DNA of 35,491 bases from assembly GCA_044222365.1 (NCBI GenBank), contig JBGANH010000004.1:1-35491 (forward strand). The letters run 5' to 3'. The stretch is from Candidatus Eiseniibacteriota bacterium (lineage in GTDB: Bacteria; Eisenbacteria; RBG-16-71-46). The position numbers and the translations under genes are program-made. Under the pieces are notes generated by a model. It saw only the letters and a list, made by a program, of their open reading frames with translations, ran no database searches and was not told where the DNA came from. Below, one piece after another: positions 5,825 through 35,491 of this stretch. The first letter of the stretch is position 1, and each line of letters begins with the position of its first letter.

Positions 5825-5831
5825 CGGCCGA

Positions 5832-9098: not shown

Positions 9099-9132
9099 GA
9101 GGGCGCCCCCGCGTCGCGGCGGGGGCGCCCTC
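9099..9132 (-). terminator. Hairpin terminating the arg operon
   Basis: GAGGGCGCCCCCGC-GTCGCG-GCGGGGGCGCCCTC: perfect 14-bp stem ~25 nt past the argF stop. Confidence 0.7.
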
Positions 9133-9157
9133 AAGTGACGGCAACTTCGTGGCACGG

Positions 9158-10162: not shown

Positions 10163-10179
10163 GTGCGGAGTCTCCTTCG

Positions 10180-13503
<3,324 letters not shown>

Positions 13504-13507
<4 letters not shown>

Positions 13508-17159: not shown

Positions 17160-17181
17160 GAATCGGCGTGCCTCCGGTCCG

Positions 17182-17322: not shown

Positions 17323-20014
17323 TCAGCGCACGAGCACCATGCGCCGCGCCTTGCGCCCGCCCTCGAACTCGAGCGACCAGAAGTACGCGCCCGCGTGCAC
17401 GGCGTGGCCCGAGTCGTCGCGGCCGTCCCACCACGTCACGCTGCGGCCCGCGGCCGCGACGCCGTCCACGAGCGTGCGCACGCGCGCGCCGGCGAGGTCG
17501 TACACGGTGAGCCGTGCGTGCCCGGTGCGCGGCACCGACCATGCGATACCCGCGTGCCCGCGCGCCGGATTGGGCGTGCTGGCGCCGAGCGCGAACGCGA
17601 GCGGCCCGTCGCTCACGCCGAGTTCGCCCGCCACCACGGTGATCGCGAAGCAGTCCTGGCCCACGGTCACGCCGCCCGGCCCCGTGACGGTGACGCACAC
17701 ACGGTTCACGCCGGCGGCCGCGGAGTCGGGCACGGCGACCGTCGCCGCGAGCCACGCGGCGCCGGCGGCCGGAACGTTCACGACGGCGTCGGCCGGCAGC
17801 GGCCACGTCCGGTCGCTCGAGAAGTGCGCGGTGTGCGCGCCCGCGAATTGCGTGTTCGCGTTCGCGAGCGACCAGCCGAAGTCGGCCGCTCCGGTCGCGT
17901 TCATGGTCGTGTCGGCCGGGCCGGAGGCGATCGCCGACGTGGTCGCCACCGCCGCCGCGTACACGTCGAGGTTCGCGCCGCGGCCGTCGGCCCACGCCGC
18001 GAGCACGGCCGCGCCGCCCGAGCCGAGCGCGAGGTAGTCCCCCATGTTCGGCGCCATGTTCGTGGCCGCGGTCGTGAAGTTCGTCGCCGTGCCGCTCAGG
18101 CGCGCGTTGGCGGCCCAGCTCGCGCCGCCGTCGGGCGAGCGCGACAGGTAGAGGTTCGCGCGCGAACCGTACGTGTCGTCGCGGAAGTCGTAGGCGAGCG
18201 TGTACGGCAGGCCGTCGCCGCCGACCGCGATCTCGGGCAGGTAGTTGTCGTAGCCGACCGCGTCGTCGTTCACGCGCACGGGCGCGGCCCACGACGAGCC
18301 GTTGTCCGACCACGTCACGAACACGTCGCGCTGGTCGCGGCCGCGCTCGGCGCCGCGCGCCCCGGCCACCGTGCGCACGCGGTATCCCATGCTGCGGTAC
18401 GAAACCGCCGCGACGCGCAGGTAGTAGGTGCCGCTCACCGGTGCGGTGTAGGTCCACATCACGCTGGTGATGGTGGCGGCGGTGCTGTCGGTCTTGCCGC
18501 CGTACGTGAGCATCTGGGCGCCGTCCGGAGCAGGCGCGAACAGTCGCAGCGTGAACGCGCGTGTCGCGGTGAACGAGTCGGCGTACACGATCACGTGCTG
18601 CCCCGCGGTGAGCGGGATCGCGAAGTAGTCCTGGTCGCGCGTGCTCGCGGTGGTCGTGAGCGTGCCGCGCAGCACCTGCCCCAGCGTCGCCGCCGTCGCG
18701 GTCGCGGTGCTGCCGTTGCTCTCGACCTCGGACCTGCCGATGCCCGCGGTGGTCGTGGCCGGGAAGGGATCGTCGAGCCAGTCGTAGCTCTCGTTCCACG
18801 ACAGGTAGACGCGGCCGCGGTGGGCGCCGCGCGTGCGGTCCACGGCGATGCCCGGGAACGTGATCCCGCGGTTGCGGTTGAAGCCGGGTGCGCCGGTGCC
18901 GAAGTTCGAGATCTGGTCCACGCACGTGAGCTCGGCGCCGAAGCTCGCGCCGAAGTCGGCCGAGCGGCGGTAGCGGAAGTGGTCGGTGTCGATCGCCGGG
19001 TTGGTCTCGAGCGCGGACCACACCGCGTGCACTTCGCCGTTCGGACCCACGGCGACGCGCGAACCCTGCACGAGGCCGTTGTCCGCGGCGGACGACAGCA
19101 TCACCGAGGCGCCCCAGGTGCGGCCGCCGTCGGTCGAGCGGTAGAAGTCGATCTGGTCGCCGCTCGTCGTGAACGTCGTGTTGCTCACGTAGAGGTGACC
19201 GGTGAGCGAATCCACCGCGATCCACTGCTTGTCGAGGAACACGCTTGCGCTGGTCGCGATGCGCACCACGAAGGCGCTGTCGAACGCGAACACGTCGTTC
19301 GTGAACCGCCCGCGCGCGACCGCGATCGCGTTGGTCGTGCCGTTCGCACCGCCGGGGCTGGCGAGGCCGCAGTACCAGAAGTCGCCGGTCTTCTCGTTCA
19401 CGGCGAGCACGGGATCGCTCGTCCAGATCCACGACGGATATGCCGCCGGATGCGGCACCGCGCCGCCGTCGGTGAACGACGCGCCGCCGTCGGCGGACCA
19501 GCCGAAGCCCTGGCCTTCGCCGTACGGCACCGAGTTGAAGCCCTGCCCGTCGTTCCACGCGGTGACCACGAAGTTGCCGAGCGCCGCGACCGCGGTCTCG
19601 GACTGCGCCGCGCTCGCGCCGTCACCCGCGGGATCGTTGCACCGCACGTTCGCGGGGATCGCCGCCGCCGCCTGCGCCGAAAGCGGCGGGTTCGCGAGGC
19701 CGAACGGACCGGCGGCGCCGGCGACGGGCAGGTCGTCGGGCAGCACGGGCACGGCGCGCGCACCGGGGCGGAGTCGCGGCGCGGACGCGGCCTTGCCGTG
19801 GCGGCGCACGAGCGCGCGCTCCTGCGCCGCGCGCATCTTGTGCAGCGGCCCGAGGCGCAGCAGCTCGACCTGCATGCGGCGGTACTCGGCGCGGCGGGCG
19901 AGGGATTCGGGATCGGTCGTCGTGCCGGCACGGGCCGGTGTCGAACGGGAGCGCCGCGAAGAGCAGCGCCGCGAACACGAGCCGGGGGCTCGTGGCGATC
20001 GGGCGGAAGTGCAT
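17323..20014 (-). CDS. Secreted sialidase-fold/BNR propeller with inserted PPC-like domain and FlgD-Ig/T9SS-CTD-like tail; apparent frameshift near 19942
   Basis: ATG 20014 (GAGG RBS) gives signal peptide MHFRPIATSPRLVFAALLFAALPF in a different frame from the body (TPARA-GTTTD...). Asp-boxes SADGGASF, STDGGRTW, SPDGGASW; DKQWIAVD; GDY; WDGRDDSG...GAYF tail. Paralog of 23388..26039. Confidence 0.8.
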
Positions 20015-20095: not shown

Positions 20096-23000
20096 CTAGC
20101 GCAGCACCGCGACCTTGGCGGAGCCACCTGTCCCCGGACGTGCAAGACGCACGACGTACATGCCCGGACGCAACGTGGCGCCGTCCGTGCCGGAGCCCGC
20201 TCCCGTGAGTGCGACCGAGTGCACGCCGGCGCCGAGCGCCGACAGGTCGCGCGACGCCACGCGCCGCCCCGCGAGGTCGATCAGCTCGAGCGTCGCGTGC
20301 GCGCCGCCCTGCGGCAGCGCGAACGTCACCGACAGCGAACCGCGTGAGGGATTCGGCCACACGGCCCGCACGCCGAAGCGCGCCGCCGCCTCGCCGTCCA
20401 CCGCGAGCGCCGAGGCCGGCACGATCGTGAAGTCGGCGGCGCTCTGTCCGATCACCTGCTGGCGCGCCGCATCCACCACGCGGACGCGTGCGGTGCTCGT
20501 GCCCGCGCCGGCCACCGTCCACGTCCACTCGGTGCCGGGCACGGAAGAGGCGAGGCGCTGCCACGTCACGCCACCGTCGCGCGAGAGTTCGACGTGCGCG
20601 TGCGTGACGTTCGCCGAGCGCGTCCACGCGATCGTGCGCTGCTGCGTCGCGATCCACGTGTCGCCGCCCGCCGGCGCGGTCACGCCGAGCGACGCCGCCG
20701 AGCCGCAGCCCGCGCGCCAGATCGTCGCGGTGTTCGTGCCGTTGTTGACCACCGCGAGGTCGGCGCCGCCGTCGCCGTCGAAGTCGCCGAGCGCGATCGC
20801 CCACGCCTTCGTGTTCGCGGCCGACGTGACGGCGGCGTTGAACGTGCCGTCGCCCTTGCCCGTGAGCATGCTCATGGTCTTCGCGGTGGTCGAACTGTTC
20901 GCCACCGCGAGGTCCGGCACGCCGTCGCCGTTCCAGTCGGTGACCACGAGGCCGCGCGGGTTCGAGTTCACGCTCACCGACGTGCCGCTCACCGGGAACG
21001 AACCGTTGCCGACGCCGGCCGCGCCGGCGCCGAGGAACATGCTCACGCTGCTCGCGCCCGAGTTCGCGACCGCGAGGTCGGCGATGCCGTCGAGATTGAA
21101 GTCCGCGCTGGCGAGATCCCAGGGCGTGCCGCCGGCGTTGTAGCTGGCCGCGGCGCCGAAGGTGCCGTTCCCCACGCCGAGCGCACCCTGTCCGAGCAGC
21201 ACCTTGAGGCCGCTCGCCGTGGTCGCGAGGTCCCAGATGCCGTCCTCGTTGAAGTCGCCCACGATCACCTGGCGCGTCTGAGCCGACACCGGCACCGTGA
21301 CGGGAGCTTCGAACGTGCCGTCGGGCACGCCCGCGGTCGTGTGGCCGCGCAGCGTGAGCAGGCCGCCCAGGGAACCGGCGACCACGAGATCGTTCGCGCC
21401 GTCCTCGTCGAAGTCGGCGATCGCGATGCCGCTCGGCTGCGCGTTGAGCGGCGTGCGCACGCCCGCGGCGAACGTGCCGTCGCCGTTGCCGCGCAGCAGC
21501 CACAGCGCGCTGTCGGCCTGCGTGCCGACGAGCAGGTCGGGGTGGCCGTCCAGGTCGACGTCGGAGATCGCCACGCACGCGGGCGTACCCGCCGCGGTGT
21601 ACGTGACGCCGGCGGCGAACGTGCCGTTGCCGTTGCCGCGCAGCACGCTCACGGTGGTCGAGCCGTTGTTCGCGACCACGAGATCGGCGTCACCGTCGTG
21701 GTCGAGGTCGGCCGTCGCGGTCGCGATCGGCGCGGAGCCGGTGCTCACGTTGGGCGAGGACGCGAGCGGGCAGAGGTTGAGCTTCACCTCGGCCGAGAAG
21801 CCGGACGAATCTGCGGCGCGCACCGTGCGCACTTTGTAGTAGAACGTGCCCATCTCGGTGTCGTCGAACGTCAGCCCGGTCGTGAAGCCGCGGTACTGCG
21901 GCGCGGCGTCGAGCATCGTGCGGCTGCGCCAGACCGAGTAGCCGGTCACGCCCGTCGAGCCGCCCGCCACCCACGAGACTCGCGCGCCGGTCGGGATCGC
22001 GGCGATGGACGGCGTACGCGGTGGCGCCGGCGCCGGCGTCGTCGCGCATGCGGCCGCGTTGATGCGCTGCCGCATGTAGTCGATGCAGATCGGGTGGAAG
22101 TCGAGACGGATGTTCGTCTGGCCGCCCGTGAGCAGGTGGCAGTAGCTCATGATCGTGCCCTTGTCCGGCGGCACGTGGGGCGTGGGCGTGATGCAGCCTT
22201 CTTCGCTCGTCTGGCACGAGTCGATGAGCGCGTTGGCGGGAAGGTAGCCGAGCGCCTGCCAGTTGCAGCTGTGCGTGTGGTACGAGCCGAAGTTGTGCCC
22301 CAGTTCGTGCGCGACGACCGACGCATCCCAGGTGCTCGTGTTGGTCGGGTAGCTGTAGGCCGCGTCGATCGCGCTCACGCTGTAGCCGAGCGAGCCGCTG
22401 CACAGCGAGTTGAGGTACGCGATGCCGCCGCCGAGCGGCCGCGCCGACAGCAGCGTGGCGAGCGAGCGCGACACGCCGCTGCGATTGGCGATCCAGTAGC
22501 TGCGGAACTCCGGCAGCTGCGCGCTCGTCGTCGCCTGCGTGTACGGGTCCGAGACCGTGGACCAGAAGTTCAGGTACGACACGTTGAGCGTCGCCTCGAG
22601 GTCGCGCTCGTAGATGAGCGACACCACGTTCATGAGCGACACCACGTAGGCGGTGGCGCTCGCGAGGTTCGACGAGAAGGTCGTGTACAGCTCGTAGTCG
22701 CAATCCACCGCGATCGTGAACGCCTTGCGCGGGGCGTCGATCTGCACGCCGTTCGGGGTCGCGGCGCGCGGCAGGCGGGGCTGCGGTCCGGCGGGGTCGA
22801 GCTCGGCTTCCGTGTTCTCGTTCACGCCGCAGGTGAAGGTGCTCGCCGCGGACGCGAGATTCGCGGCCGGTGCGAGCGCGTGCAGCGCACGCCCGCCGGA
22901 CAGCGACGCCGCGACCGGTGCGAGCTGCAACTGTTCGCCGTGCATTTCGATCGCGCCGATCGCGCCGTCGGCGGTGAACGTGAGCGCCGCCCAGCCGTCC

Positions 23001-23383
23001 GGATCGCCGGCGACGGTGCCGCGGAAGCACACGACGTCCGGCGCGTACGCATGCGCTCCCGCGTCGTCGGTGTACGTGAGCGTCGCGCCCGGCGCGAGTA
23101 CGTCCACACGCGTGAGCGACAGCGTCAGCACGCTGCCGTCCGGCGCCGGTAGTTCGAGCGTGCCACCGTCACCGGAGCGGAACTCGGCGAGCGCCGCCTC
23201 GTCCACGCTCAGGTACGCGACGGACTCGCGCTGGGGCACGAGCCCCGTCGCGAGCGCCACGTCCGCGGTGCGGACGGGGCCCGTGGCGCGGACGAATGGC
23301 GAGGCGGCGTGTGCCGCGACCGTGAGGCTCGAGAGAGCGAGAGCGAGGAGCGAAAGCGAGACGAGCAACCGGCGCGACTTCAT
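20096..23383 (-). CDS. Secreted reprolysin-like (M12B) metzincin with FN3-like domain, FG-GAP/VCBS propeller, Ig-like domain and T9SS-CTD-like tail
   Basis: Signal peptide ending AAHA; prodomain FTCGV; AVDCDYE; GGIAYLNSLC; HELGHNFGSYH (HExxHxxGxxH); Met-turn GTIMSYCH; tail WPNPSRG...DLAGRRV...GMYVVRL...VAVLR. Confidence 0.9.
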   Translation of the reverse strand: MKSRRLLVSLSLLALALSSLTVAAHAASPFVRATGPVRTADVALATGLVPQRESVAYLSVDEAALAEFRSGDGGTLELPAPDGSVLTLSLTRVDVLAPGATLTYTDDAGAHAYAPDVVCFRGTVAGDPDGWAALTFTADGAIGAIEMHGEQLQLAPVAASLSGGRALHALAPAANLASAASTFTCGVNENTEAELDPAGPQPRLPRAATPNGVQIDAPRKAFTIAVDCDYELYTTFSSNLASATAYVVSLMNVVSLIYERDLEATLNVSYLNFWSTVSDPYTQATTSAQLPEFRSYWIANRSGVSRSLATLLSARPLGGGIAYLNSLCSGSLGYSVSAIDAAYSYPTNTSTWDASVVAHELGHNFGSYHTHSCNWQALGYLPANALIDSCQTSEEGCITPTPHVPPDKGTIMSYCHLLTGGQTNIRLDFHPICIDYMRQRINAAACATTPAPAPPRTPSIAAIPTGARVSWVAGGSTGVTGYSVWRSRTMLDAAPQYRGFTTGLTFDDTEMGTFYYKVRTVRAADSSGFSAEVKLNLCPLASSPNVSTGSAPIATATADLDHDGDADLVVANNGSTTVSVLRGNGNGTFAAGVTYTAAGTPACVAISDVDLDGHPDLLVGTQADSALWLLRGNGDGTFAAGVRTPLNAQPSGIAIADFDEDGANDLVVAGSLGGLLTLRGHTTAGVPDGTFEAPVTVPVSAQTRQVIVGDFNEDGIWDLATTASGLKVLLGQGALGVGNGTFGAAASYNAGGTPWDLASADFNLDGIADLAVANSGASSVSMFLGAGAAGVGNGSFPVSGTSVSVNSNPRGLVVTDWNGDGVPDLAVANSSTTAKTMSMLTGKGDGTFNAAVTSAANTKAWAIALGDFDGDGGADLAVVNNGTNTATIWRAGCGSAASLGVTAPAGGDTWIATQQRTIAWTRSANVTHAHVELSRDGGVTWQRLASSVPGTEWTWTVAGAGTSTARVRVVDAARQQVIGQSAADFTIVPASALAVDGEAAARFGVRAVWPNPSRGSLSVTFALPQGGAHATLELIDLAGRRVASRDLSALGAGVHSVALTGAGSGTDGATLRPGMYVVRLARPGTGGSAKVAVLR
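20730..21760 (-). repeat. Seven FG-GAP/VCBS Ca-binding protein repeats (boundaries approximate)
   Basis: DLDHDGDADL, DVDLDGHPDL, DFDEDGANDL, DFNEDGIWDL, DFNLDGIADL, DWNGDGVPDL, DFDGDGGADL, most followed by a GTF/GSF motif. Confidence 0.9.
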
Positions 23384-23387
23384 GCGA

Positions 23388-26039
23388 TCACCTCAGGATG
23401 CTGATCCTCCGGGACGTTTCGTCGGAACCCTGGATCAGGCGCAACAGGTAGACGCCGGGACGGATGCCGCCGCCGGCGGGGAGAACGAACTCGTGGGCGC
23501 CCGGTCCGGGCGTGCCCAACTCATAGGTGCGGACGAGCCGCCCCGTGATATCCAGCACTTCAATTCTCGCACGGTTCGTGCCCCGAAGGCGATACGCCAC
23601 CCGGACCGGCGCGGCCGCGCCACGGTCCACGGGGTTCGGGAACACGCCGGTGATGGCCAGCGAGGGCGGCGTGGGCCCGGCGGGCATGGTGACGGAAGCC
23701 TTTCCGTAGAAACGTTCTTCGCCGTCCACGACCACGCCGAGGCGGTACTCGTAGGTGGCTCCCACGACGACCGAAGTGTCCGTGAAGCTGGCCGCGCCGG
23801 CCGCGGGCGGCAGCGTCTCGCGGGCGCTCCAGGCGCCGCCCGGCAGGTTCCGGCGGTAGACCGTCGGCGTCACCGTCGTGGACGGCGTGAGCTGCCAGTT
23901 GACGAGCACCGTGCTGTCCGAGGTCGCCTGCGCCGTCGTGACGTCCGCGCGCAGCGCCGCGGCGACGAACGCCATGTAGGCGTTCGGGTCGCCGTCGCGG
24001 CCGTCCGCCCAGCAACCGGCGATGCCGCGGTCCCAGGCGGCGAGGCCGTTGTAGTCGCCCTGGTTCGGCTGGATGTTCGTGTTCACGATCGTCCATGCGG
24101 TCTGCGCGCTCGACAGCGCAGAGCCCGCTTGCCAGGTGGCGCCACCGTCGGACGAGGCCGAGAAGTAGGTGTGCGAGACCGCACCGCCGCTGCTGCTCGC
24201 GGAGTTGCGGAAGTCGAACCATTGCGTGAACACGTGGCCGTCCGGACTCACCGCGATCTCGGGGAGCCAGTCGTCATAGCCGCTCGGGCTGTCGCTCACG
24301 CGCACCGGGGCGCTCCAGAAGGCGCCCTTGTCGTCCGACCAGGACGTGAACACGTCGCGTTGGTCGCGCCCGCGTTCGATCGTCCGTGTCGCGGGGCCGG
24401 TGCGGATGCGGTAGCCGCCGAAGCCCGTCACCGGGAAGATGCGGAAGTAGTACGTGCCCGCGTTCGGCGCGGTGAAGGGATAGGCCGGTCCGAAGCCCGA
24501 AGTGATGTCGGTGGACGAGGCGAGCGCGTACGTGAGCCGTGACGATCCGTCCGGGCCGAACACGCGCATCGAGAACTGCATCCCCGCGGACATCGAATCG
24601 GCCATGAACACGATGGACTCGCCCGCGCTCAGCGTGACCTGGTACCAGTCCTCTTCCACGCCGCTCGTCGCGAGGTCGCCGCGCAGCGTCTGGCCGCTCA
24701 GGAACGCGTTCGCACCGGCGGGCGCGCCGTTCGGTTCGACTTCGCTGCGGTTGCCCGACAGCCCGATGCCCGTGAGGTCGTCGAACCAGTTGAGGCTCTC
24801 GGCCCACGTCAGGTGCAGCCGCCCGTCGTGGGCGCCACCGCTGTGATCCGCCGCGATCGAGGCAAACTGGATGCCCATCGCACGATTGAAGCCGGGTGCG
24901 CCGGTGGCGAAGTTCGGATAGAACGTGAGGATGGTCGTGGGCGCGGCGAACGACGCACCGAAGTTCACGGACTTCGCGATGCGGTAGGCGTCCACGTCCA
25001 CGAGACCGATCTTGTAGTACATCACGTAGACCGTTCCGTCGGGGCCGACCACCGGCCGCGAGCCCTGCACGAGGCCGCGTTCGTCGAGCGCGATGTTGTT
25101 CGAGTTGACCGACACGAGCACGGGCGTGCTCCACGACGTCAGCGCGCTGTCGGCGGCCTGGAAGTTGATCTCGCTCACGTTCGAGACGAAGCGGGTGTAG
25201 CTGAGGTAGACGCGCCCCGTGCCCGGATCCACCGCGATCCACTGCTTGTCGAGGAACTCGGAGGAGTAGTTCACGCTGCGCACGAGCGAGGGCGTCTGCC
25301 AGACGACGTTCGAGCCGCTGAAGCGGCCCTTCACCACGCCGATGCCGTTCGTGTTACCCGAGGGGCCGTCGGGATCGATGAGTGCCGAGAAGTAGAACGC
25401 GCCCGTGCGCGGGTTCACCGCGAGCACGGGGTCGCTGGTCCACGACCAGTTCGGCGATCCTGCGGGAATCGGGAACGTGCCGCGGTCGGTCCACGTCTGT
25501 CCTCCGTCGGCCGACGTGGCGTAGCCCTGGTACTGGTTCGAACCGTCGTGGAAGCCCTTGCCGTCGTTCCACGCGGCGATCAGGTACTGGTTCCACGCGA
25601 CGATGGACGTTTCGCACTGGCCGTCGCCCGCCGTGTCGCCGGTCGGGTTGTTGCAGCGCACGTTCGTGGGCGCGACCGCCGCCACGGCGGGCGCGGCGTC
25701 ACCGAACGCGCCCGGTCGCGGCGCGGCCGGCAGTGCTTCGGTGCGCCCGTCGGGTCGCGCCTTCTCACCGCCCACGCGCAGGCTCGTCTTGCCCGCGCGC
25801 TTCATCTGCTTCGCCAGCCGGCGCAGCTCGCGCTGGCGTTCGGCGAACTCCTTGCGCTCCTCGCGGCGTTCCATCGGTTCCAGCCCGAGCCGCAGCGCCT
25901 GCAGGCGCTTGATCGGCGCGAGGTGCTCGAACGTGCGGCCGGCAGCGGCAGCCGCCGGGGACGCGAAGGTCCCCACGCCGAGCGTGAACGCGAATGCCGC
26001 GGCGAGCGCGACGCATGAGCCTTTCCGGGTGCGCGGCAT
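23388..26039 (-). CDS. Secreted sialidase-fold/BNR propeller with inserted PPC-like domain, Ig-like domain and T9SS-CTD-like tail
   Basis: ATG 26039 with AAGGA RBS; signal peptide; SADGGQTW, SDPVLA, DKQWIAVD, EVEPNG...EEDWY, SSDGGATW, QGDY, WADGRDG; tail FPNP...DITGRLV...GVYLLRL...ISILR. Confidence 0.85.
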   Translation of the reverse strand: MPRTRKGSCVALAAAFAFTLGVGTFASPAAAAAGRTFEHLAPIKRLQALRLGLEPMERREERKEFAERQRELRRLAKQMKRAGKTSLRVGGEKARPDGRTEALPAAPRPGAFGDAAPAVAAVAPTNVRCNNPTGDTAGDGQCETSIVAWNQYLIAAWNDGKGFHDGSNQYQGYATSADGGQTWTDRGTFPIPAGSPNWSWTSDPVLAVNPRTGAFYFSALIDPDGPSGNTNGIGVVKGRFSGSNVVWQTPSLVRSVNYSSEFLDKQWIAVDPGTGRVYLSYTRFVSNVSEINFQAADSALTSWSTPVLVSVNSNNIALDERGLVQGSRPVVGPDGTVYVMYYKIGLVDVDAYRIAKSVNFGASFAAPTTILTFYPNFATGAPGFNRAMGIQFASIAADHSGGAHDGRLHLTWAESLNWFDDLTGIGLSGNRSEVEPNGAPAGANAFLSGQTLRGDLATSGVEEDWYQVTLSAGESIVFMADSMSAGMQFSMRVFGPDGSSRLTYALASSTDITSGFGPAYPFTAPNAGTYYFRIFPVTGFGGYRIRTGPATRTIERGRDQRDVFTSWSDDKGAFWSAPVRVSDSPSGYDDWLPEIAVSPDGHVFTQWFDFRNSASSSGGAVSHTYFSASSDGGATWQAGSALSSAQTAWTIVNTNIQPNQGDYNGLAAWDRGIAGCWADGRDGDPNAYMAFVAAALRADVTTAQATSDSTVLVNWQLTPSTTVTPTVYRRNLPGGAWSARETLPPAAGAASFTDTSVVVGATYEYRLGVVVDGEERFYGKASVTMPAGPTPPSLAITGVFPNPVDRGAAAPVRVAYRLRGTNRARIEVLDITGRLVRTYELGTPGPGAHEFVLPAGGGIRPGVYLLRLIQGSDETSRRISILR

Positions 26040-26088
26040 GGGAGTCCTTTCGGGGGTACTGCCTGCCCGGCGCCGGCGCGTCGGGGAG

Positions 26089-26803: not shown

Positions 26804-27388
26804 ATGAGCACCGGTTCCGAAAGCCGCACCGACACCGAACTGCTGCGCGAGATCCGCCGCGAGCCCGGTTCCCCCGGAGCCCTCGCCGCGGGCAGCGAGC
26901 TGTTCGGCCGGTACCGGCTCAAGACCTATCAATGGTGCTTCCGGGTGGTGCGCGACCACGACACCGCGCTCGACCTGGCGCAGGACGCGCTGCTGTCGGC
27001 CTGGCGGGGACTCGCCGGGTTCGACGAGCGCTCGCAGTTCTCGTCGTGGCTGTTCGCGATCGTCCGCAACCGCTGCCTGACGGCGGTGCGCAAGCGCGTG
27101 AACGTCCGCGACGAATCGGTGGATCCGGACGACCTGCTCGCCGATGGGCGTGACCCGCTCGACGTGCTCGCCGACCGGCAGGAGGAAGGCGCGGTGCTGG
27201 AGGCCATCCGCGACGACCTCGAGCCCCTCGAGCAGGAAGCGTTGTGGCTGCGCGCCGTGGAGCGCATGCCGGTGGACGAAATCACGCGGGTGCTGCGCAT
27301 ACGTTCGGCTTCGGGCGCGCGGGGAGTGCTGCAGTCCGCGCGACGCAAGCTGAAGGCGCGATTCGGGTCGCGCAGGGAGGGCATGTGA
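26804..27388 (+). CDS. ECF RNA polymerase sigma-70 factor
   Basis: ATG 26804. TDTELL, LFGRYR, ALDLAQDALLSAWRGLAGFDERSQFSSWLFAIVRNRCL (region 2); EQEALWLR...DEITRVL...ARRKLK (region 4). Confidence 0.92.
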   Translation: MSTGSESRTDTELLREIRREPGSPGALAAGSELFGRYRLKTYQWCFRVVRDHDTALDLAQDALLSAWRGLAGFDERSQFSSWLFAIVRNRCLTAVRKRVNVRDESVDPDDLLADGRDPLDVLADRQEEGAVLEAIRDDLEPLEQEALWLRAVERMPVDEITRVLRIRSASGARGVLQSARRKLKARFGSRREGM

Positions 27389-28086
27389 CCAGGTCCCAGG
27401 GTTGTCCCGCCGAATCCGCGCTGCCCGCGCGCTTCGACGCGGGCGAGCCGGAAGTGCTCGCGCACGTGCAGGGGTGTCCTCGGTGCCGTGCGCTGATCGC
27501 GCAGCACCGGGCGTTCCTCGAGAACGAGGCCAACCCGGCGCCGACTCCGGCACAGCTGGCCGCTGCCGATGCGGCGCTGGCCGCCGCGCTCGAGCGTGAG
27601 ATGTCGGGTGGCCGCGCGCCGCAGCAGGTGACGGCCTCGCCGCGCTCGCTCGCGGACCCGCCGCGTGCGTCCTGGTGGCAGGCACTGTTCGCGCCCGCGC
27701 TGCGTCCGGCGTGGGGCTTCGCCGCCGTGCTGGTCGTGGCGGGCGGCCTGTATGCGACGCTGCGCCCGGTGGAGCGCGCCGAGGTGCGCGGTGACGCGAC
27801 GCAGGCCGAGGTCGTGACCACGCTCGCTCCGGTCGCGGGCGACGGTGTCGTGACGCTCGCGTGGGAGCCCGTCGCGGGCGCGGACGGCTACGACGTCGTG
27901 CTGCTCGCCACCGACCTGTCCGAACTCGGCGCGCCCCTGCACGTGCGCGAGCCGCGGCTCGAACTGCGCCGCGACGCGCTGCCCGCCGGCGTGACGAGCG
28001 GCGCGAAGCTGCTCTGGCAGGTCACCGCCCGCATCGGTGAGCGCGAGCTGTCGCACTCGGTCGCCGCGGAGTGCGTGGCGCCGTGA
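27385..28086 (+). CDS. Putative zinc-finger (zf-HC2/ZAS) transmembrane anti-sigma factor
   Basis: GTG 27385 overlaps the sigma stop (GTGA); GGAGG RBS; HVQGCPRC (HxxxCxxC); TM WGFAAVLVVAGGLYATL; FN3-like C-terminus (LAWEPVAGADGYDV...WQVTA). Confidence 0.8.
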   Translation: MTRSQGCPAESALPARFDAGEPEVLAHVQGCPRCRALIAQHRAFLENEANPAPTPAQLAAADAALAAALEREMSGGRAPQQVTASPRSLADPPRASWWQALFAPALRPAWGFAAVLVVAGGLYATLRPVERAEVRGDATQAEVVTTLAPVAGDGVVTLAWEPVAGADGYDVVLLATDLSELGAPLHVREPRLELRRDALPAGVTSGAKLLWQVTARIGERELSHSVAAECVAP

Positions 28087-28090
28087 CGCC

Positions 28091-28108
28091 ACTGGCAGCG
28101 CTGCCAGT
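28091..28108. other. Perfect 18-bp palindrome between convergent genes
   Basis: ACTGGCAGCGCTGCCAGT is its own reverse complement; lies 4 nt after the anti-sigma stop. Confidence 0.55.
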
Positions 28109-28155
28109 CCGCTGACGAAACCCGGACCGGCGGACGCAGTCGTGTTCGCGCGCCG

Positions 28156-31100
28156 CTACTGCACTCGCACGCGGTAGCTCACGCTGCCGCGGCCGCCGGG
28201 CGCGAGTGCGCCGGCGAGCGTCCAGGTCACGGTGCCGTTGGCGCCGACCGCGGGCTGCATGAGCGCGCAGCCGGTGATGCCGTCGGCGGCCGTGGCGCAC
28301 GTCGCGGAGTCGAACACCGTCCACGCCGGCGTGGCGTCGCGGATCACGAGGTTCGAGAGCGTGCCCGTGCCCGGGTTCTCGTAGGAAATCGTGTACACGA
28401 GATAGTCGCCGGGACGCGCGCTCGCCACGTCCACGGTCTTCGTGAGCACGAGGCCGCTCGCCAGCGTCACGGTGGTGACGTCCTGCAGCTGCTCGCCGGA
28501 CGACAGCGCCGGCGCGGCGTTCGCGTACGTGAAGCTCGCGGTCAGCGTCGCCTGTTCGCTCGCACCGGTGGGCGCGCCGGCGGGCGTCGCGTGCGTCGCG
28601 ATCACGCACACGCTCTGGCCCGCGGCGAGCGCGATGCTGCTCGCGGTCGAGAGCGCCGGTTCGCCGGCGTCGAGCACGCCGTCGCAGTCGAGGTCGCGGT
28701 GCAGCGTCATGCTCCAGCCCGCGAGCGCGGGCGTCGCGACGCCCGCGGAGGCGAAGCTCACCGCGCCGTCGCTCGCCGCCGTGAACGTGTGCGCGTAGCT
28801 CGTCGTGGCTCCGCTCGACACGGTGCGCGCACCGTTGGCGACCCAGGTGTTGCGCGGCACCTCGCCGAAGGCGAGGCCCTGGTATTCGCGGCCGGAGGCC
28901 GCGGTGAATGTGACGGCCGCCGCCGCGCGATCGTAGGTGCCGAAGCTGTCGCCCGCGCGTCCGCCGGTCGCGAGTGCGCCCACACCCACGGGCGCGACGA
29001 CGTTCACGTTCGCGCCGGCGAGCGTGTGCGGCAGCCACAGCGCGAACGCGCCGGCGCCGTCGGTGAGTGCGCTGTCGCAGGGCGCGGCGCCGCACGACGC
29101 GCTCGTCAGTCGCACGCGCGCACCCGCGATCGCCGACTCGGCGCCGGAGCGAGCGCCGTCGTGCGCGACGCCGCCACCGGCGCCGTCGTCGCGGAAGCGG
29201 ACGCCGCGCACGACGCTGCCGTGCCAGAGCCCGAACGTCGCGCCGCCCACATCGGTCGCCGCCACGTTCAGCGGTCCGCGCTCGCCGGTGGGCGCCTCGG
29301 TGCGCACCCAGCCCGCGGGTGCATCGGCGGTCGAGTCGGCGCCGTCGGCCGACGTGTCGAGCTTCACCACGTACGCGCCCGAGGCGACGAACGTGAACGC
29401 GAAAGCGCCGCTCGTGCCGTCCACCGCCGCGACCTGCGAAGCCGACGGCGAACCCACGGCGAACAGCTTCGCCCACAGCGCCGCGCCGGTGCCGCCCTCG
29501 CCCGCGTCGCGCTGCGCGTCGTGGTCGGCGTCGGCGTACGCCCAGCCGCCGACGCTCACGCCGGTGGTCACGGGCACGCCGCCCGAGAACTCGGACGTGC
29601 CGGTGCCCGTCACCGTCGCGGTCGCGGTGAGCACGACCGAAGCGGCGACGTGGGGCGGCGCGGGCATCGTGAAGCGGAAACGCCGCGTGTTGTCGGTGCC
29701 GGGGTTGATGCCGTTGTAGAGGCCGGAGTACGTGCTCGTCGTGCCGTCGAGGTCGGCGGCCGAGCCTTCCGTGACGCTCGCCACGTACGTGCGTCCTTCG
29801 CCGAAGCCGCTCGGGTCGCCGTCCGAGACGAACAGCTCGATCACGCTGCCGGGCCGCGCCCAGCCGCTCACGGTGAAGCTGCCGTTCGAGAGCACGGCGT
29901 AGTCCATCACGGGATGGTTGAGCAGCGCGTTGCCGCCCGCGTCGCCGTCGCCGTTGTCGTTGCGCGTCACGTACGGCGCGGTGCCGCGCGCGGCGTCGTC
30001 GGCCGCCGACTGCAGGTCGATGCCGACCTGGCCGCTCGCCGCGCCGCCGCCGTTGCCGGCCGCCGTGCCGTTGCCCCAGATCGAGTTGCGCGAGAGCACG
30101 TGGTTGCTCGCGCCGCTCGTCACCTGCACGCCCGCGCCCACGTGGAGCGCGATCTCGCAGCGCTGCACCGTGCCGCCCGCGCCGCCGAGCCGCACGCCCG
30201 CGGTCGCGGTGTTCGCCGCCGCGCCGAGGCCGCAGCGCCGCACGGTGACGTTGGTCAGCGTGAGCCCGCCGGTCGCCGTGCGCGCGTCCACGCCGTTGCC
30301 TTCGGACTCGCCGATCCAGCACGCGGTCACGCTCAGCGTGCCGCTCGCTTCGAGCGACACCGCGCCGCGCGCGCCGTTGCCGATCGCGACGCCGCGGATC
30401 TCGCTCGTCTGGATCGTCCAGCCGTTGCTCGCGCCCGCGAGCGTCACGGCGCTGCCCGCGGCGAAGCCGAGCAGCGAGCGCTGCACGAGGCCCGCGTCGC
30501 CGCCCGCGGCGCGCAGCAGGTCGCCGCCCGCGCGCGACGCCGCGCCCGAGTCGGCGAACGCGCGCGCCGTGGCGCCGAGCACCGCGTCCTCGAGCGTGAA
30601 GCCGTTCGCGCTCGCGCCCACGCGCACGCACGCGTCGTTCGCGCTGTTGACGGCGTTGCCGAAGCCCGAGCGCGCGCACGGTGACGCTTGCGCCCTGCAC
30701 GTCGAGCCCGATCGCGAGCGCGTTCGCGTCGCGCAGTTCGACTTCGGGCGCGGCGACGGCCGTGAGCGCGATCTCGTCCGTGCCCACCGTGGGCGCGGCG
30801 CCGAGCGCGCCGCCGTTCGTGTTGCCGACGTTCGCGGTCTGCGTGCCGCCGTCCACGCGCGTTCCCGCGTCGGTCAGCGCCGGCAGCGGCGTGAGCGGCA
30901 CGAAGCGCGCGACGCCGTTCACGAGCGCGTTCGCGAGTCCCGCGCGCAGGCCCGGATGCGCGAGCCCGTCGGGAACCATGAACACGCTGGTCTCGACGCC
31001 CGCGGGCAGGCCCGATTGCGCGAGGCCCGTGTTGGCGAGCGCGTTCGCGTTGAGCAGGAACTGTCGCAGCGTGCCCGCGCCCGCGTCGCGCGTGCTCACG

Positions 31101-33133
31101 ATCGTGTCGAAGTTGAAGCCGAAATCCACGCCGGTCACGTCGGCCGAGCCGAGCGTCACGCTCGCCACCGACTGCGGCGTGGCCGCGGGGCTCGTGAGCG
31201 TGCCGAGCGCGGCCGCCGTCGTGTTCGAGTCGGCGTCGGCGATCGCGGGGTTCTCGCCGCCGACGCGGTCGGTCACGGCGACCGGAGTGCCGCTCGAGGC
31301 GTCGGTGCGCCACGTCTGCACGGACAGCAGTCCCGCGACGGCGCCGGGGCGCGACGAGCGCACGCTCGCGTTCACGACGCGCACGGTGTACGCGCCCGCC
31401 GGCCAGCCGTCGAACACGTACGCGCCCGCCGCGTCGGTCCGTGCGAGCTGCAGGAACGCTCCGGTGCCGCCGTCGTACAACTCGACGCGCGCGCCCGGGC
31501 GCGCCACGCCGGAGGATGCGGCGAGCGAGCGCCCCGCGCCGCCGCCGTAGTTCGGATCCTCGAACACGGTTCCCGCGATGCGCGCCGAGGTCACCGTGAC
31601 GATCGTGGACTGCGTGCCGCCGGTCACGGGATCGCCGTCCGAGCGCGCGGCGAACGCGACGCCCGACTGCTGGCCCGTGAACGCGAGCGCGGCCTGGTTG
31701 CTGACCGCGGTGCCCGAGGGCTGCGGCGCGTTCACGGTCACCCGGAAGACGACGCTCGTGGTGACGGCGACGTCGATGCGTCCGCCCGCCGCGGCCGTGG
31801 CGCCGGTGCCGAGGCGCGCGACGACGCTGCGCGAGGCGCCCACGTATTCCGCCTGATCGTCGCCCGCGGCGTCGGTCTTCGCGCCCGCGTTCGGGCCCGC
31901 GCTCACGCGCAGCGAACCCGGCACGTACGTGACGTTCGACGGCAGCGTGTCGGCCATGGCGCACGCGATCGCGTGGTCGAGGCCGTTGTTGCGCATCGTG
32001 ACCGTGTACTCGAGCACGTCGCCCGGGCGCACGAGGCCGCCGTTCACGTCGGTCACCGTCTTCGTGAAGTTCGCGGCGTCGAACACCGGCGCGTACAGGT
32101 CCGTCGCGAACGTCACCGCGCCGGGGTAGTACGTGTCGCCGTTCGTCGTGAGGGAGACCGACGCGCTCGTCGCGCCGTTCGCGAGCAGGCCGTCCGCCTG
32201 CACGAGATCGCAGTCGAAGCCGAGCTGGTTCAGGTAGTTCGGGTTCTTCGCGGTGAACGGCGCGCCGAGCTGGCTGATCGAGCTGTTGAAGAAGTTGTCC
32301 GCGGGATTGGTCGCGTTCGAGAGCGCGGTGCCGTTGAGCCGGAAGCTGTCGCCGGTGAAGCCGAGGTCGCCTTCGAACGCGACCACGCCGAGCCGCGTGT
32401 TCACGGTGCCCGCGGGCGGCGTCACGAACCCGCTCACCGTCATGTTGACGGTCGTCGTGCCCGAGACGAGCGCGAAGCCGTCGAACACGACGAGGTTGCG
32501 CGCGGGCTGCGTGGCGTCGGAGTACACGACCACGAGCGACCAGCCACCGTGCACGTTCGTCGTGTTGGGTGTCGAGCGCACGTCGGCGACGCGATACACG
32601 CCCGCGCCGGCCGCTCGCACGAGCGCGGTGACCTCGGCGAAGCCCTGGTAGGCGCTGCCGCTCGCGTCGAGCTGCGTCGCCGTGTAGGTGTTGTACGCGC
32701 TCGAAGCCGGCGTCGCGATCTTGACCGTGTTGCGCAGCGCGTTGTTGGTGTAGCCGCCCCAGTAGAGGCCGGCCCACGTGACCGTGGCGCCCGCGGGCAG
32801 CGTCAGCGTCGCGGTGCTCGAGCTGACCGTGGTCGAGACGCCGTCCATGTCCACGTAGACCATGGTGTTGTCGTTGTTGTTGATCGAGTTGCCGTTGCCG
32901 TTGCGGGCGTTGTTGCAGTTGCCGCCGCCGTTGCACGACATGACCGTGTTGCCGATCAGCGTGACGTCGCCCGGCTGGTTGACGCTGAAGCGCGGCGTGA
33001 ACTGGCGCACGACCTGCGCGGCCGCGGGCGTGGCGCACAGCACGGCGTACGCGAGGGCGGCGGCGAGCACCGCCACCGGGCCGAGGGCTTCGAAGGCCCC
33101 GGAGCGGCCGGAACCGCGATGCCAAGTCCTCAC
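28156..33133 (-). CDS. Large (~1650 aa) secreted DUF11-domain surface protein/adhesin with SdrD-B-like and beta-helix regions; apparent frameshift near 30667
   Basis: GTG 33133 overlaps the upstream stop; GGAGG RBS; signal peptide ending LCATPAAA-QVVRQ. DUF11 FTKTV...PGDVLEYTVTMRNNG...DTLP...SNQA; IAGTVFED; beta-helix-like GVDAR/GVRL/GVQV/NSIWGN; terminal DUF11 LTKTV...PGDYLVYTISYEN...DATP...YRVRVQ*. The frame switches at RAL|GFGN. Confidence 0.8.
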
Positions 33134-35491
33134 GGGCGCACCTCCGGTTCGTTCGCGAACGTGCGTTCGTCGAAGCGCATGCGTACGCGCAGGTAGGCGC
33201 CGGCGCGCGTCCACGACTCGCCCGCGAGCTCCTCGTCGTCGAAACCGAAGCGGTTGAATCCCAGGGCCAGCCACGCGCCACGCGCGAGTTCGCGTCCGAC
33301 CTCGGCGCCGAGTCCGTACTCGCGTTCGGCGAACGTGCGGCCGGCGCGCACGCCGCCCGTGACGCCCGCATCCCAGTGCGTGCCCAGCGCGCGCGACAGC
33401 CGTCCGTGCAGCCACTGCGCGCCGCCCGCGGTGACGCGCCCGGGTTCCTGGTCGCGCGTGAGCTTGCCCGCCCAGCCGAGCGTGCCTTCCCATGCGCGCT
33501 TCGTGGTCGAGCCCGAGAGCGCGGCGATGTTCGCGACGTGGCGCACGCGTCCGATGCCGGCGACGGCGTTCGGCGCCTCGCGGTCGTAGCGGAACTCCCA
33601 GCGGCCGAGCGCTTCGTGCGCGCCGTTCGGCCGCCACGCGAAGCCGAGCTGCAGCCGCTCGCGCGCCTCGGCGCCGGCGCCGTGTGTGCGCGTGAGCGTG
33701 AGCAGCTGGCGGCCGAGCGCGGTCCACGCCGAGTCGAGCCGCACCGCCGCCGCCATGCCCTGCAGGAACTGGTCGCTCGCGCGGCTCGTGCGCACTTCGA
33801 AGCGCGACGAACCCTTCCACACGTCGTCGCCCGTGAAGTCCACCGCGCCCGTGACTGCGGTCGTCGGGCCCGCGTCGCCGCCCGCGAGCGGTGTGACGCG
33901 CTCGAACGTGGTCGAGATCCGCATGCCTTCTGCGACCTTCCAGCCGTTGCGCAGGCCGACCGCGGCCTGGCCTTCGCGGCCGGCGATCGCGTCGCTCATG
34001 CGGTACTCGCTGAAGACGTGCGCGCCGTGCGCGACGTCGGCGTCCACGCCCACCACGGTGGCGGCCTGGTTTTGCGCGTTCGAGAGCGCCCAGGCGCTGG
34101 AAAGGCTCGAGAGCAGTTCGTGCCGCGCGTAGAGCCGTCCGCGCGCGGTGAACCGGTACTCGCCGCCCACCGCCGCCATGCGCCGCTCCCAGTCGCGCGT
34201 GTCCTGCTCGACCTCGGAGTAGCCGCTCCACTCCGGGTGCCCGGGCCACTGCGCGGACAGCCGCGCGCGCAGCGCCGCGCTCGTGCGTTCGGCGGGCGCG
34301 CCGCGGCGCGAGACGCCGGCCACGCGCACGCCGAACTCGCCGCGTGCCGCGGTGCCGAGCGGGCGATCGAGCGACAGCAGTCCGCCCGCGCGGCGTTCGC
34401 GTCCGGCGGCGTCGGCGCTGAAGAGCGCCTCGGCGGCGAGCCGCGAGCGGTCGGGCAGGCGCAGCGCGAGCGTCGCGCCCGCCTCGTTGCGACCGGCTCC
34501 GGCGCCCGCCGAGGGGTTGTCGAAGCGCGGCGAGGTCGAAACGCCCCACGCGCGAGCGGTGCCGCGCGGCGACTCGTGCGTGAGTTCGACGCGTCCACCG
34601 TCGGCCGCGGCCTCGCCCACGTGGCGCGTCGCCGCCCACTCGGCCGCGAACGCGGTGTGCGCGCCCGCGCGCCACTCGCCCGAGACTCCGCGCAGTTCGT
34701 ACGGCGCCGAGGGGTCGTGGTCGTCCACGGCCACCGCGCCCACTTCGAGCCGCGGATGCACGCGCACGCGCGCGTCGGCGCCGTGCACCCACGCGGCGGC
34801 GCCGTCGCCGTCGCGCTCGTAGCTCACGCGCAGCCACACGGTGTTCAGGTCCGCGTCCACGCTCGGCGCGGGCGCGCGCAGCAGCAGCCGGCCGGTGAGC
34901 GGTTCGAGCGTGTAGTCGGTGAAGCGCTGCAGCGACGTGCTGCTCCGGACGAGCGCGGGCTGCGCGCGGTCGCGCACGATCAGCTCGACGCGCTCGGAGT
35001 TCTCGACCACCGGTGCGTCGGCGAGCACGTACGGCCCGCTCGTGCCCATGCCGCGGAGTTCTTCCACCGCGCGGCGGCCGCGGTCGCGGCTCGTGAACGT
35101 GTGCACCGCGAGCGGGCCGCGCTCCCACGACGCGAGCGCGCCGGTGAGCGAGCGGCCGTATCGCCCGAGTGAGCGGAAGGAAGAGGTGGGTCCGGAGGAC
35201 CCGGACCCCGTGACGTAGTCGCCGTAGAGCAGCGACGCGTCGCGGCGTTCGAGCTTCGCGTACAGCTGGCCCGTGGACTGCGCTTCGTAGCCGCGCGTGG
35301 CGGCGTCGCCCGTGACCGGGAAGCCGCGGTCGGGGGTGAGGTCGCGGAACTGGCGCTGTTCGCGCTCGCGATCGGAATCCCAGCCGAGCGTCAACAGCAG
35401 GTCGCCCTGCACGCGGCCCTTGAGGAAGAGTGCGCCGTGCGCGTCGGCGGCCGTGCGGCCATCGCGGCTCTCGGTGGCGAACTGCGTGATC
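33130..35491 (-). CDS. Large predicted outer-membrane beta-barrel protein of DUF11-associated operons; 5' end lies outside the window
   Basis: Frame stays open to the window edge (ITQFATESRDG...GALFLKGRVQGDLLLTLGWDSD). FPVTGD, LYAKLER, LYGDY, GTSGPY, ENSERVEL, DYTLEPLTGRL; many alternating amphipathic strands; C-terminal LGFN...GAYLRVRMRF resembles a beta-signal. Confidence 0.7.
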   Translation of the reverse strand, partial: ITQFATESRDGRTAADAHGALFLKGRVQGDLLLTLGWDSDREREQRQFRDLTPDRGFPVTGDAATRGYEAQSTGQLYAKLERRDASLLYGDYVTGSGSSGPTSSFRSLGRYGRSLTGALASWERGPLAVHTFTSRDRGRRAVEELRGMGTSGPYVLADAPVVENSERVELIVRDRAQPALVRSSTSLQRFTDYTLEPLTGRLLLRAPAPSVDADLNTVWLRVSYERDGDGAAAWVHGADARVRVHPRLEVGAVAVDDHDPSAPYELRGVSGEWRAGAHTAFAAEWAATRHVGEAAADGGRVELTHESPRGTARAWGVSTSPRFDNPSAGAGAGRNEAGATLALRLPDRSRLAAEALFSADAAGRERRAGGLLSLDRPLGTAARGEFGVRVAGVSRRGAPAERTSAALRARLSAQWPGHPEWSGYSEVEQDTRDWERRMAAVGGEYRFTARGRLYARHELLSSLSSAWALSNAQNQAATVVGVDADVAHGAHVFSEYRMSDAIAGREGQAAVGLRNGWKVAEGMRISTTFERVTPLAGGDAGPTTAVTGAVDFTGDDVWKGSSRFEVRTSRASDQFLQGMAAAVRLDSAWTALGRQLLTLTRTHGAGAEARERLQLGFAWRPNGAHEALGRWEFRYDREAPNAVAGIGRVRHVANIAALSGSTTKRAWEGTLGWAGKLTRDQEPGRVTAGGAQWLHGRLSRALGTHWDAGVTGGVRAGRTFAEREYGLGAEVGRELARGAWLALGFNRFGFDDEELAGESWTRAGAYLRVRMRFDERTFANEPEVRP

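Follow-up and report, generated by a model that had tools for sequence, protein, structure and literature searches.

The stretch of DNA analysed here (the window; 35,491 nucleotides, Candidatus Eiseniibacteriota bacterium) is the whole of contig C268 of a metagenome-assembled genome (4.0 Mb, 345 contigs, 79% complete). This report concerns two genes at its right end, read on the minus strand from 35490 to 28156: the 3' part of a gene for a stalk protein fused to an outer-membrane beta-barrel and, behind it, the gene of a putative tip adhesin ending in a DUF11 domain of the isopeptide-forming CLIPPER type. GC content across the window ranges from 68 to 77%, so that long spurious open reading frames (ORFs) are plentiful, and the true reading frames were picked by the GC content of third codon positions (GC3 frame plot). 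The ORF 28022-35491 (2,489 amino acids) was rejected as a gene by this plot, in which coding was seen only from about 33133 to 30667, the remainder being an Arg-rich off-frame reading of DNA with 72-77% GC. The features of the two genes are as follows.

33130..35490, minus strand: 3' part of the barrel-fusion (putative anchor) gene, 786 codons, with the stop TGA at 33130-33132 and the ORF open to the contig end
33141..33145, minus strand: ribosome-binding site (GGAGG), 7 nt upstream of the GTG at 33133 that starts the adhesin
33017..33133, minus strand: adhesin signal peptide, 39 residues, ending in AAA before a mature Q (cleavage site read by eye from the translation)
32201..32866, minus strand: DUF3344-like head domain (Pfam PF11824, E 2.3e-05, 24.6 bits, under the 27.2-bit cut-off)
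31676..32074, minus strand: intact internal DUF11/CLIPPER domain, with Lys (codon AAG) at 32060-32062, Asp of DTLP at 31949-31951 and Asn (codon AAC) at 31697-31699
30659..30674, minus strand: frameshift site, where the orthologues have 8 bp more between 30667 and 30666 (GC3 plot, blastn)
28468..30666, minus strand: post-frameshift stalk of a right-handed beta-helix (Pfam Beta_helix, 28.9 bits), an SdrD_B-like domain (SdrD_B, 24.6 bits) and a penultimate immunoglobulin (Ig)-like domain
28159..28467, minus strand: terminal DUF11/CLIPPER domain (the putative acceptor), 103 amino acids, Pfam DUF11, with Lys and Asp present and the Asn strands absent

The TGA stop of the barrel ORF overlaps the GTG start of the adhesin in a GTGA (33130-33133), and the same overlap was read by us from the coordinates of the two genes in the relative G001. 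An earlier note on this DNA had given this overlap, the positions of the Lys and Asn codons, the Asp of DTLP and of DATP and the stop after YRVRVQ, all correctly. The two genes do overlap as it claimed, but its barrel gene is a 3' fragment (786 codons) of a longer gene interrupted where the contig ends, and its single open adhesin frame from 28156 to 33133 proved to be two frames, the coding frame shifting at about 30660 because of the 8-bp deletion, which was seen by blastn against three relatives (G001, G008 and G014). The adhesin gene of G001 is intact (about 1,650 codons). Two public contigs (runs X1 and X4), both from one study and from a strain about 96% identical to the window, bridge 30666/30667 and have the 8 bases, and the contigs of runs X2 and X3 break exactly at this position; no public contig identical to the window bridges it and none confirms the deletion, which could be an artefact of assembly or a lesion of this strain alone. 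The adhesin orthologues of L068 (G015) and L069 (G010) lack query residues ~531-1189 (SdrD_B and part of the beta-helix) and retain the head, the internal DUF11 domain and the terminal acceptor, so the length of the adhesin stalk is variable.

Nothing follows the adhesin stop, as the same note had stated: no LPXTG and no hydrophobic tail were found after the YRVRVQ end, the protein has no Por_Secre_tail or FlgD_ig-type tail, and the next genes, at 26804-28083 on the plus strand, converge on its 3' end. No sortase family was matched among the scanned proteins of the window and of the loci.

In the terminal DUF11 domain the Lys (28438-28440) and the Asp of DATP (28336-28338) are followed by the TAG stop (28156-28158) right after YRVRVQ; a Lys-Asp-Asn triad within one domain is thus found in the internal domain at 31676-32074 and not in the terminal one. 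The terminal domain scored 31.9 bits in Pfam (cut-off 24.6 bits) over profile positions 2-81 of 114, and the DUF11 repeats of a giant paralogue described below cover positions 1-114; the internal adhesin domain scored 21.7 bits, under the same cut-off, and the G001 adhesin orthologue 72.3 bits with TIGR01451 (cut-off 24). In the alignments, the terminal domains of the adhesin and of geneA, the gene that lies directly upstream of the barrel gene in relatives, both stop just before the Asn-bearing segment of intact DUF11 domains, of which the counterparts read ...FRVTVN followed by APQPSGTAVSNQAALAF... in the adhesin internal domain and ...VTVAVN followed by AAAYPSVTNAAIVV... in the repeats of the giant paralogue. 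The end residue of the adhesin (...RVRVQ and stop) was identical in 11/11 loci and in all 15 genomes compared, and geneA ended in an equivalent DUF11 domain at the equivalent point in 14/14; judged by these sequences, the end point of the adhesin is not due to chance. The Lys and Asp were invariant in 29/29 terminal domains (alignment A4). In the adhesin alignment, neither the terminal domain nor the residues just before it hold a conserved Asn: YANAA has N or G, and GANG varies. A cis donor just upstream of the terminal domain (the FTYANAA hairpin) was considered and rejected, its Asn being N or G among the homologues and the segment lying outside the interface of the complex model described below.

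The earlier note had called this terminal Ig fold incomplete. The description holds against intact DUF11 domains, but the 103 residues alone were folded by AlphaFold2 (AF2) into a seven-strand sandwich with a predicted local distance difference test (pLDDT) of 94, so that the word incomplete rests on the comparison with intact DUF11 and not on a visibly broken fold. The best fold match of this model was 9IFR (Z 9.8, root-mean-square deviation (rmsd) 2.4 Å, 91 residues aligned), with model residues 1-103 aligned to residues 18-109 of the 123-residue chain. The bond residues of 9IFR are Lys715, Asp748 and Asn806 in a domain spanning 708-828, according to the CLIPPER paper (PMC12617251). By this spacing the Asn would lie about 9 residues past the aligned end, which is an estimate since the numbering offset of the 9IFR entry is not known. 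A complete DUF11 repeat had no match at E <= 1 among the PDB sequences by phmmer, and the sole match of the acceptor profile there was the Gram-positive pilin Spb1 (4UZG, E 7e-4), not 9IFR.

The candidate missing strands were found at the N-termini of two neighbouring gene products. In the genome of the window (G000), geneA is at the end of another contig, C5.

15814-18252 of L010 (contig C5), at the 3' end of C5: 5' part of geneA, cut by the contig end

In relatives, geneA encodes about 865 amino acids with several DUF11- or NEW3-like domains, and the C5 copy is 97% identical to that of G001. Since geneA leaves C5 at its 3' end, the barrel gene leaves C268 at 35491 and the two are syntenic in G001, the contigs are taken to be adjacent, and the unassembled ~3.4 kb between them would encode the C-terminus of the geneA product together with the donor and stalk region of the barrel fusion. 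The full barrel-fusion orthologue of G001 (P0004) has 1,813 amino acids in the order signal peptide, N-terminal hairpin, Ig-like, CarboxypepD_reg, DUF11, SdrD_B and Big_1-like domains and then the barrel; by this comparison the 5' ~1,030 codons of the window gene, for the signal peptide, the donor hairpin and the stalk domains, should fall outside the contig.

Mature geneA begins with AAPPAGTPIGNQATATYLDATSNSYTVNSNPVVTVV, a two-strand hairpin resembling the tail of an intact DUF11 domain, and in its first part, AAPPAGTPIGNQATATY..., Asn11 was invariant in 21/21 orthologues (alignment A3, from which G026 was left out). Right after the signal peptide, the barrel fusions of 8/8 relatives carry A-[AM]-P-P-A-G-T-P-[IV]-x-N-x-A; geneA opens in the same fashion, A-A-P-P-A-G-T-P-I-x-N-x-A being the form shared by both. 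When ...YRVRVQ is joined to AAPPAGTPIGNQATATY, the result parallels the internal ...FRVTVN and APQPSGTAVSNQAALAF, the Asn standing 11 residues past the break in both, and the DUF11 domain thus looks as if it had been cut in a loop. Asn11 of the donor is the homologue of Asn806 of 9IFR. The adhesin has an acceptor only, the barrel fusion a donor only and geneA both a donor and an acceptor. Donor-bearing genes do lie nearby, as the earlier note had expected, and geneA and the barrel fusion both carry an invariant x-N-x-A strand at the start of their mature chains; its donor from the N-terminus of another subunit carries the N-x-A as supposed, but it is a two-strand hairpin and not a single strand. 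The signal peptides, as read from the sequences, end in A-x-A followed by A and have no lipobox Cys. In a scan of the window's own genome for donors and acceptors, only the window acceptor and the geneA donor were found assembled (79% completeness).

For the complex model, the last 235 residues of the adhesin (two domains, 15-sequence alignment) were combined with 167 residues of mature geneA (hairpin and first domain, 21-sequence alignment). The interaction prediction score from aligned errors (ipSAE) was 0.87, 0.86 and 0.86, and the best of 3 controls gave 0.00; the mark of the tool for this score is passed by 58/80 solved complexes and 2/110 mismatched pairs, counts that apply only roughly because our own alignments were supplied. 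The runs shared at least 92% of contacts, with a partner pLDDT of at least 88. The interface comprised residues 137-144 (with Lys142), 146-151, 155-161, 167-177 (with Asp176), 179-182, 220 and 234-235 of the acceptor side and residues 1-3, 7, 9-20, 24-25 and 27-37 of the donor side; Lys142 contacts donor residues 13, 29 and 30, and Asp176 contacts donor residue 13. In the model the donor hairpin packs against the acceptor strands that bear the Lys and Asp, which supports binding.

The arrangement is conserved well beyond the window. The gene order small DUF11-like protein, geneA, barrel fusion and adhesin was kept in 14/14 fetched loci of relatives. Among 41 related genomes, 20 had all three large genes, 19 had none and 2 had parts on short contigs; this tally is our own reading of the tables, includes the unpublished G026 and is drawn from related genomes that are not independent samples. 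At least 194 database clusters among those scored matched the barrel-fusion family at E <= 1e-5, and they were named only 'DUF11 domain-containing', 'TIGR01451 repeat protein' or 'hypothetical'. The Asn donor motif was found within the first 140 residues in 99/120 barrel-fusion homologues among the matches listed; apart from four substituted sequences discussed below, the other 17 were mostly N-terminally truncated gene calls or variants missed by the pattern.

A collection with a single genome for each species yielded at least 252 relatives, of which 80 loci (L070-L149) were kept for a wider survey with profiles built from close relatives. Their lineages were Eisenbacteria, Verrucomicrobiota, Gamma- and Betaproteobacteria, Desulfuromonadales, Nitrospirota, Armatimonadia, Acidobacteriaceae, Gemmatimonadetes and Entotheonella. 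Burkholderiales-type genomes and the complete genome CP012157 were among the carriers. The 80 loci held 87 C-terminal acceptors, every one of which ended 0-4 residues after the last profile position, with Lys in 73/73 aligned and Asp in 86/87, and 71 donors, with Asn11 in 70, Ala13 in 71 and Asn30 in 68. A complete triad (an upstream ORF bearing both donor and acceptor, a barrel-gene donor and a downstream ORF with a C-terminal acceptor) was present in 23/49 loci from other lineages with enough sequence on both sides, and 6 more of the 49 missed only a detected barrel donor. The linkage to the barrel gene and the end of the homologues at this stop (15/15 close relatives, 87/87 wider terminal domains), on which the earlier note had staked its proposal, are thus both conserved. 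Rare variants were P0050, P0053, P0057 and P0071, L107 6455-12406 and L115 3683-6349; variants of the donor Asn and of the acceptor Asp are possible non-covalent versions.

The barrel itself is all-beta in the AF2 model (17-sequence alignment), with about 32 strands in residues 217-771 and more strands before them. No Pfam or NCBIfam family matched it, PF03797 included. Foldseek on the model returned generic large outer-membrane barrels only, at a TM-score of about 0.2 (LptD, SprA, TonB-dependent receptors, SlpA and MtrB, with FimD at rank 33). A search independent of Foldseek (VIA) gave the PapC usher pore first (Z 13.2, rmsd 7.1 Å, 325 residues aligned), a weak match with a Z only about 1 above those of OmpM1 and AlgE, unrelated porins. 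The nearest Atlas clusters were unnamed outer-membrane proteins. The barrel is an outer-membrane barrel of no described family. The separate usher-like gene of the earlier note is the C-terminal domain of a donor-bearing stalk protein, which makes the protein first of all an anchor subunit; that the barrel also serves as a translocon is conceivable but on the doubtful side. A database protein of 2,539 amino acids (P0089) is a gene call running from the barrel into the DUF3344 adhesin, and it is most likely a read-through of the 4-nt overlap by a frame error and no true fusion.

Upstream of geneA on C5, L010 carries the following genes.

2764-11103, plus strand: giant single-chain paralogue with an unknown head, ~10 complete DUF11 repeats, SdrD_B and a barrel
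11061-12272, plus strand: OmpA-family peptidoglycan-binding protein, ~400 amino acids, overlapping the 3' end of the giant paralogue
12336-14693, minus strand: Ser/Thr protein kinase gene, between the OmpA-family and small DUF11-like genes
15218-15730, plus strand: small DUF11-like protein, 170 amino acids, just before geneA

The barrel of the giant paralogue is 37% identical to that of the window, and the protein looks like a fused equivalent of the split system. The OmpA-like gene has a weak NCBIfam match recalling TpgA of the trimeric autotransporters. In G001 the OmpA-like and small-protein genes are only about 320 bp apart, so the kinase gene looks like an insertion. Across phyla, no other member of the module is as well conserved as the small protein (motifs kPG..eY, atLPvP, PL.R and EYr.LRW), which was found just upstream of a geneA-like gene in 50/80 loci of the wider survey (E <= 1e-36). 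It matches the DUF11 family alone and aligns with the acceptor domain (hhalign probability 79%) without the Asp, and by our own reading of its alignment no Lys is conserved at the first strand. It may be a chaperone or cap, holding the donors until exchange.

Elsewhere in the window, an arginine biosynthesis cluster lies on the minus strand at 9161-17180 (argR, argC, argB, argD, argG, an argH-GNAT fusion and argF, named from Pfam matches). Several large secreted proteins that end in Por_Secre_tail or FlgD_ig-type domains, which may be sorting signals of a type IX-like kind, are encoded at 567-3569 (plus strand) and at 17326-19965, 20099-23392 and 23391-26048 (minus strand); their further domains are Sortilin/BNR, an M12B metalloprotease with FG-GAP repeats, and PPC. 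The two genes converging on the adhesin are those of an extracytoplasmic function (ECF)-type sigma factor (Sigma70_r2, 26804-27385, plus strand) and of a protein without a family match (27394-28083, plus strand).

We consider it rather probable that the region is the distal end of a four-gene, head-to-tail surface-fibre module, probably isopeptide-locked and anchored by its own barrel. Complementation in trans is likely, and the chances of a covalent lock, a Lys-Asn isopeptide, are evenly balanced. All four proteins would leave the cytoplasm by Sec, given the signal peptides read from their sequences. The anchor would sit in the outer membrane by its C-terminal beta-barrel of about 750 residues, holding the fibre and perhaps also serving as the export pore, with its N-terminal stalk extracellular, because the head and ten repeats of the fused paralogue would be useful only outside the cell. 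GeneA would be the shaft or adaptor and the adhesin, with its DUF3344 head and stalk, the tip. Each N-terminal hairpin would insert into the C-terminal domain of the more distal subunit (geneA into the tip, the anchor into geneA, which may also self-polymerise) and rebuild a complete DUF11/CLIPPER domain, whereupon the Lys-Asn isopeptide would probably form spontaneously, as in intact CLIPPER domains, and lock the chain. In topology the product would match the fused paralogue, both being a linear string of Ig-like beads, and such a string could cross the wide barrel as folded domains. What the analysis shows is how the sequences are built and how well this is conserved, the linkage of the genes and a complex model that passes; we infer binding in the cell, covalency, the order of the subunits, the export route and the chaperone or cap role of the small protein. 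A bolder version, put forward tentatively and with less confidence, would be a phylum-spanning class of fibres in which tip, shaft and anchor are ligated by natural Tag/Catcher pairs (split CLIPPER domains) and exported through the giant barrel of the anchor, the small protein being a decoy-acceptor chaperone or cap.

Several points weigh against the fibre module. All of its support is computational, and the adhesin acceptor with the geneA donor is the one pairing modelled. The passing score of that complex may reflect the memory that the model has of intact CnaA-like folds, because a known fold is rebuilt in it. Asn11 lies inside the interface but is absent from the closest pairs listed for Lys142, and Asn30 is also near-invariant, so that the model does not fix the bonded residue. 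By its confident AF2 fold, the terminal domain may be stable without a donor, and the barrel model reached a pLDDT of only 68 and is without a specific fold relative. Ser or Ala replaced the donor Asn in 4/120 barrel-fusion homologues among the matches listed. No covariation was seen: the two variant loci, which are uninformative, show no joint loss of a donor Asn and an acceptor Lys or Asp. In one, with a barrel donor changed from Asn to Ser, both acceptors retain Lys and Asp, and in the other, with a geneA acceptor changed from Asp to Asn, the donors retain Asn. Finally, the adhesin is frameshifted in this assembly, and if the frameshift is real this strain is without the acceptor.

The subunits may also be wired differently, the geneA hairpin closing the C-terminal domain of its own chain while the anchor donor captures the tip, or the donors pairing with the other acceptor and not with the one modelled. 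With two donors and two covalent-type acceptors per locus, and with geneA bearing one of each, several wirings fit, and adhesin with geneA is the sole pair modelled; a precedent for domains built from discontinuous segments is the GBS104-like, nested Gram-positive pilus adhesin listed in PMC12617251. We nevertheless regard another wiring as unlikely, since the geneA donor docks confidently on the adhesin acceptor in the model, for self-closure the geneA chain, about 7 domains long, would need to loop back, and the fused paralogue is a linear chain. Equally unlikely in our view is a strand complementation that stays non-covalent, as in chaperone-usher pili, with Lys and Asp kept for stability or by descent. 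The donor Asn is missing in the four listed homologues above and in 1/71 wider donors, one acceptor is without Asp, Asn11 is not listed among the closest Lys142 contacts of the model, and BsaA oligomers without the isopeptide Asn stay stable in sodium dodecyl sulfate (SDS) until heated, as PMC11580942 reports. Against this, the near-invariance of Lys (73/73), Asp (86/87) and Asn (70/71) across phyla is hard to explain without chemistry, and the same triad makes the bond in the solved CLIPPER domain.

It may be, lastly, that nothing is split: the terminal domain would be a complete seven-strand variant of the Ig-like fold, the hairpins would belong to the first domains of their own chains, and the genes would encode neighbouring fibrillar adhesins beside an outer-membrane protein. 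The AF2 fold of the terminal domain alone (pLDDT 94) speaks for it, as do the compact seven-strand relatives DUF7507/CLIPPER_2 described in PMC12617251. It would leave unexplained, however, the invariant Lys and Asp without an Asn in the same chain, the invariant Asn hairpin that opens the mature chain exactly and keeps the spacing seen in an intact domain, and the strict end point in 87/87 domains, and the complex score of 0.86 against 0.00 for the controls was obtained with the donor's own first domain present. We hold it to be improbable, the most so of the readings set out here.

DUF11 (PF01345) is the experimentally shown Lys-Asp-Asn isopeptide domain CLIPPER, a stalk unit in fibrillar adhesins of Gram-negative bacteria (Protein Sci 2025, PMC12617251). 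At this locus the first strand carries the Lys and the Asp comes about 34 residues further on, positions that match Lys715 and Asp748 of 9IFR. The known triad stands in one chain and makes an intramolecular bond, whereas here the Asn strands are on the N-termini of other proteins; the accessible sections of the paper mention no split of the domain and treat intramolecular bonds only, and the word 'split' is absent from its main text (PMC12617251).

The fibre module would share with the chaperone-usher pili (Fim/Pap) the head-to-tail principle, in which an N-terminal extension completes the Ig-like fold of the previous subunit and the tip has no donor, as well as an outer-membrane barrel at the base and genes in an operon, the incomplete Ig acceptor and the N-terminal donor being alike by analogy and not by homology. 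Unlike in those pili, the donor here is two-stranded, long proteins of many domains carry the acceptor at their C-terminus, and the subunits are likely to be locked covalently. The barrel forms one chain with a stalk subunit and is larger than that of ushers, at about 32 or more predicted strands against 24. No usher (PF00577) or PapD-like family was matched among the scanned locus proteins.

In BsaA of Clostridium perfringens (TasA family), the N-terminal segment enters the beta-sheet of the neighbour in a 'donor-strand exchange and lock', and an Asn-Glu-Lys triad yields a spontaneous intermolecular isopeptide, backed by mutagenesis (PMC11580942, bioRxiv). BsaA has a TasA/camelysin-like fold, unlike the CnaA-like DUF11 with its Lys-Asp-Asn triad, and forms a Gram-positive homopolymer without an outer-membrane barrel or tip or anchor subunits; no TasA/camelysin Pfam family was found in any locus protein. 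[quoted passage not shown] It is an archaeal homopolymer without a barrel, and its subunit has no Pfam family.

The module would also differ from engineered Tag/Catcher pairs in that its split would be natural, CnaA-like and fibre-building. The SpyTag/SpyCatcher and SnoopTag/SnoopCatcher pairs were made from CnaB domains of Gram-positive bacteria by separating a short strand from the rest of an isopeptide domain, and the two pieces reconstitute it and ligate spontaneously. As in a classical autotransporter (type Va), a signal peptide, an N-terminal stalk and a C-terminal outer-membrane barrel are in one chain, and the OmpA-like partner gene after the fused paralogue recalls TpgA; the type Va barrel has about 280 residues and 12 strands, whereas the barrel here has about 750 residues, with about 32 or more strands over at least ~550 residues, and its passenger bears a donor strand. 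The type V pili of Bacteroidia (FimA/Mfa) are built from lipoprotein precursors by protease-triggered strand exchange, and the signal peptides of this locus differ from theirs in having no lipobox Cys. From the sortase-assembled Gram-positive pili the adhesin differs in having no LPXTG.

Donor-strand complementation, optionally isopeptide-locked, is already known from chaperone-usher pili, archaeal threads (PMC9715654) and BsaA (PMC11580942). The parts that differ from the known systems are the split CnaA-like CLIPPER domain, the two-strand donor, the multi-domain hetero-subunits and the anchor fused to a giant barrel, and full-text literature searches found no description of such a split domain or barrel family. 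If the reading is right, the CLIPPER isopeptide domain would gain an intermolecular role, natural orthogonal Tag/Catcher pairs would become available for protein engineering, and the question would arise of how a covalent string of folded Ig domains is exported through a barrel of about 32 or more strands. It would account for many proteins now named 'DUF11 domain-containing', 'TIGR01451 repeat' or 'hypothetical'. The carriers of the module are soil, sludge and groundwater bacteria of many phyla, and for such outer-membrane bacteria it would be a new way of building pili or fibrillar adhesins, as self-ligating multi-protein stalks made without sortase or chaperone-usher machinery.

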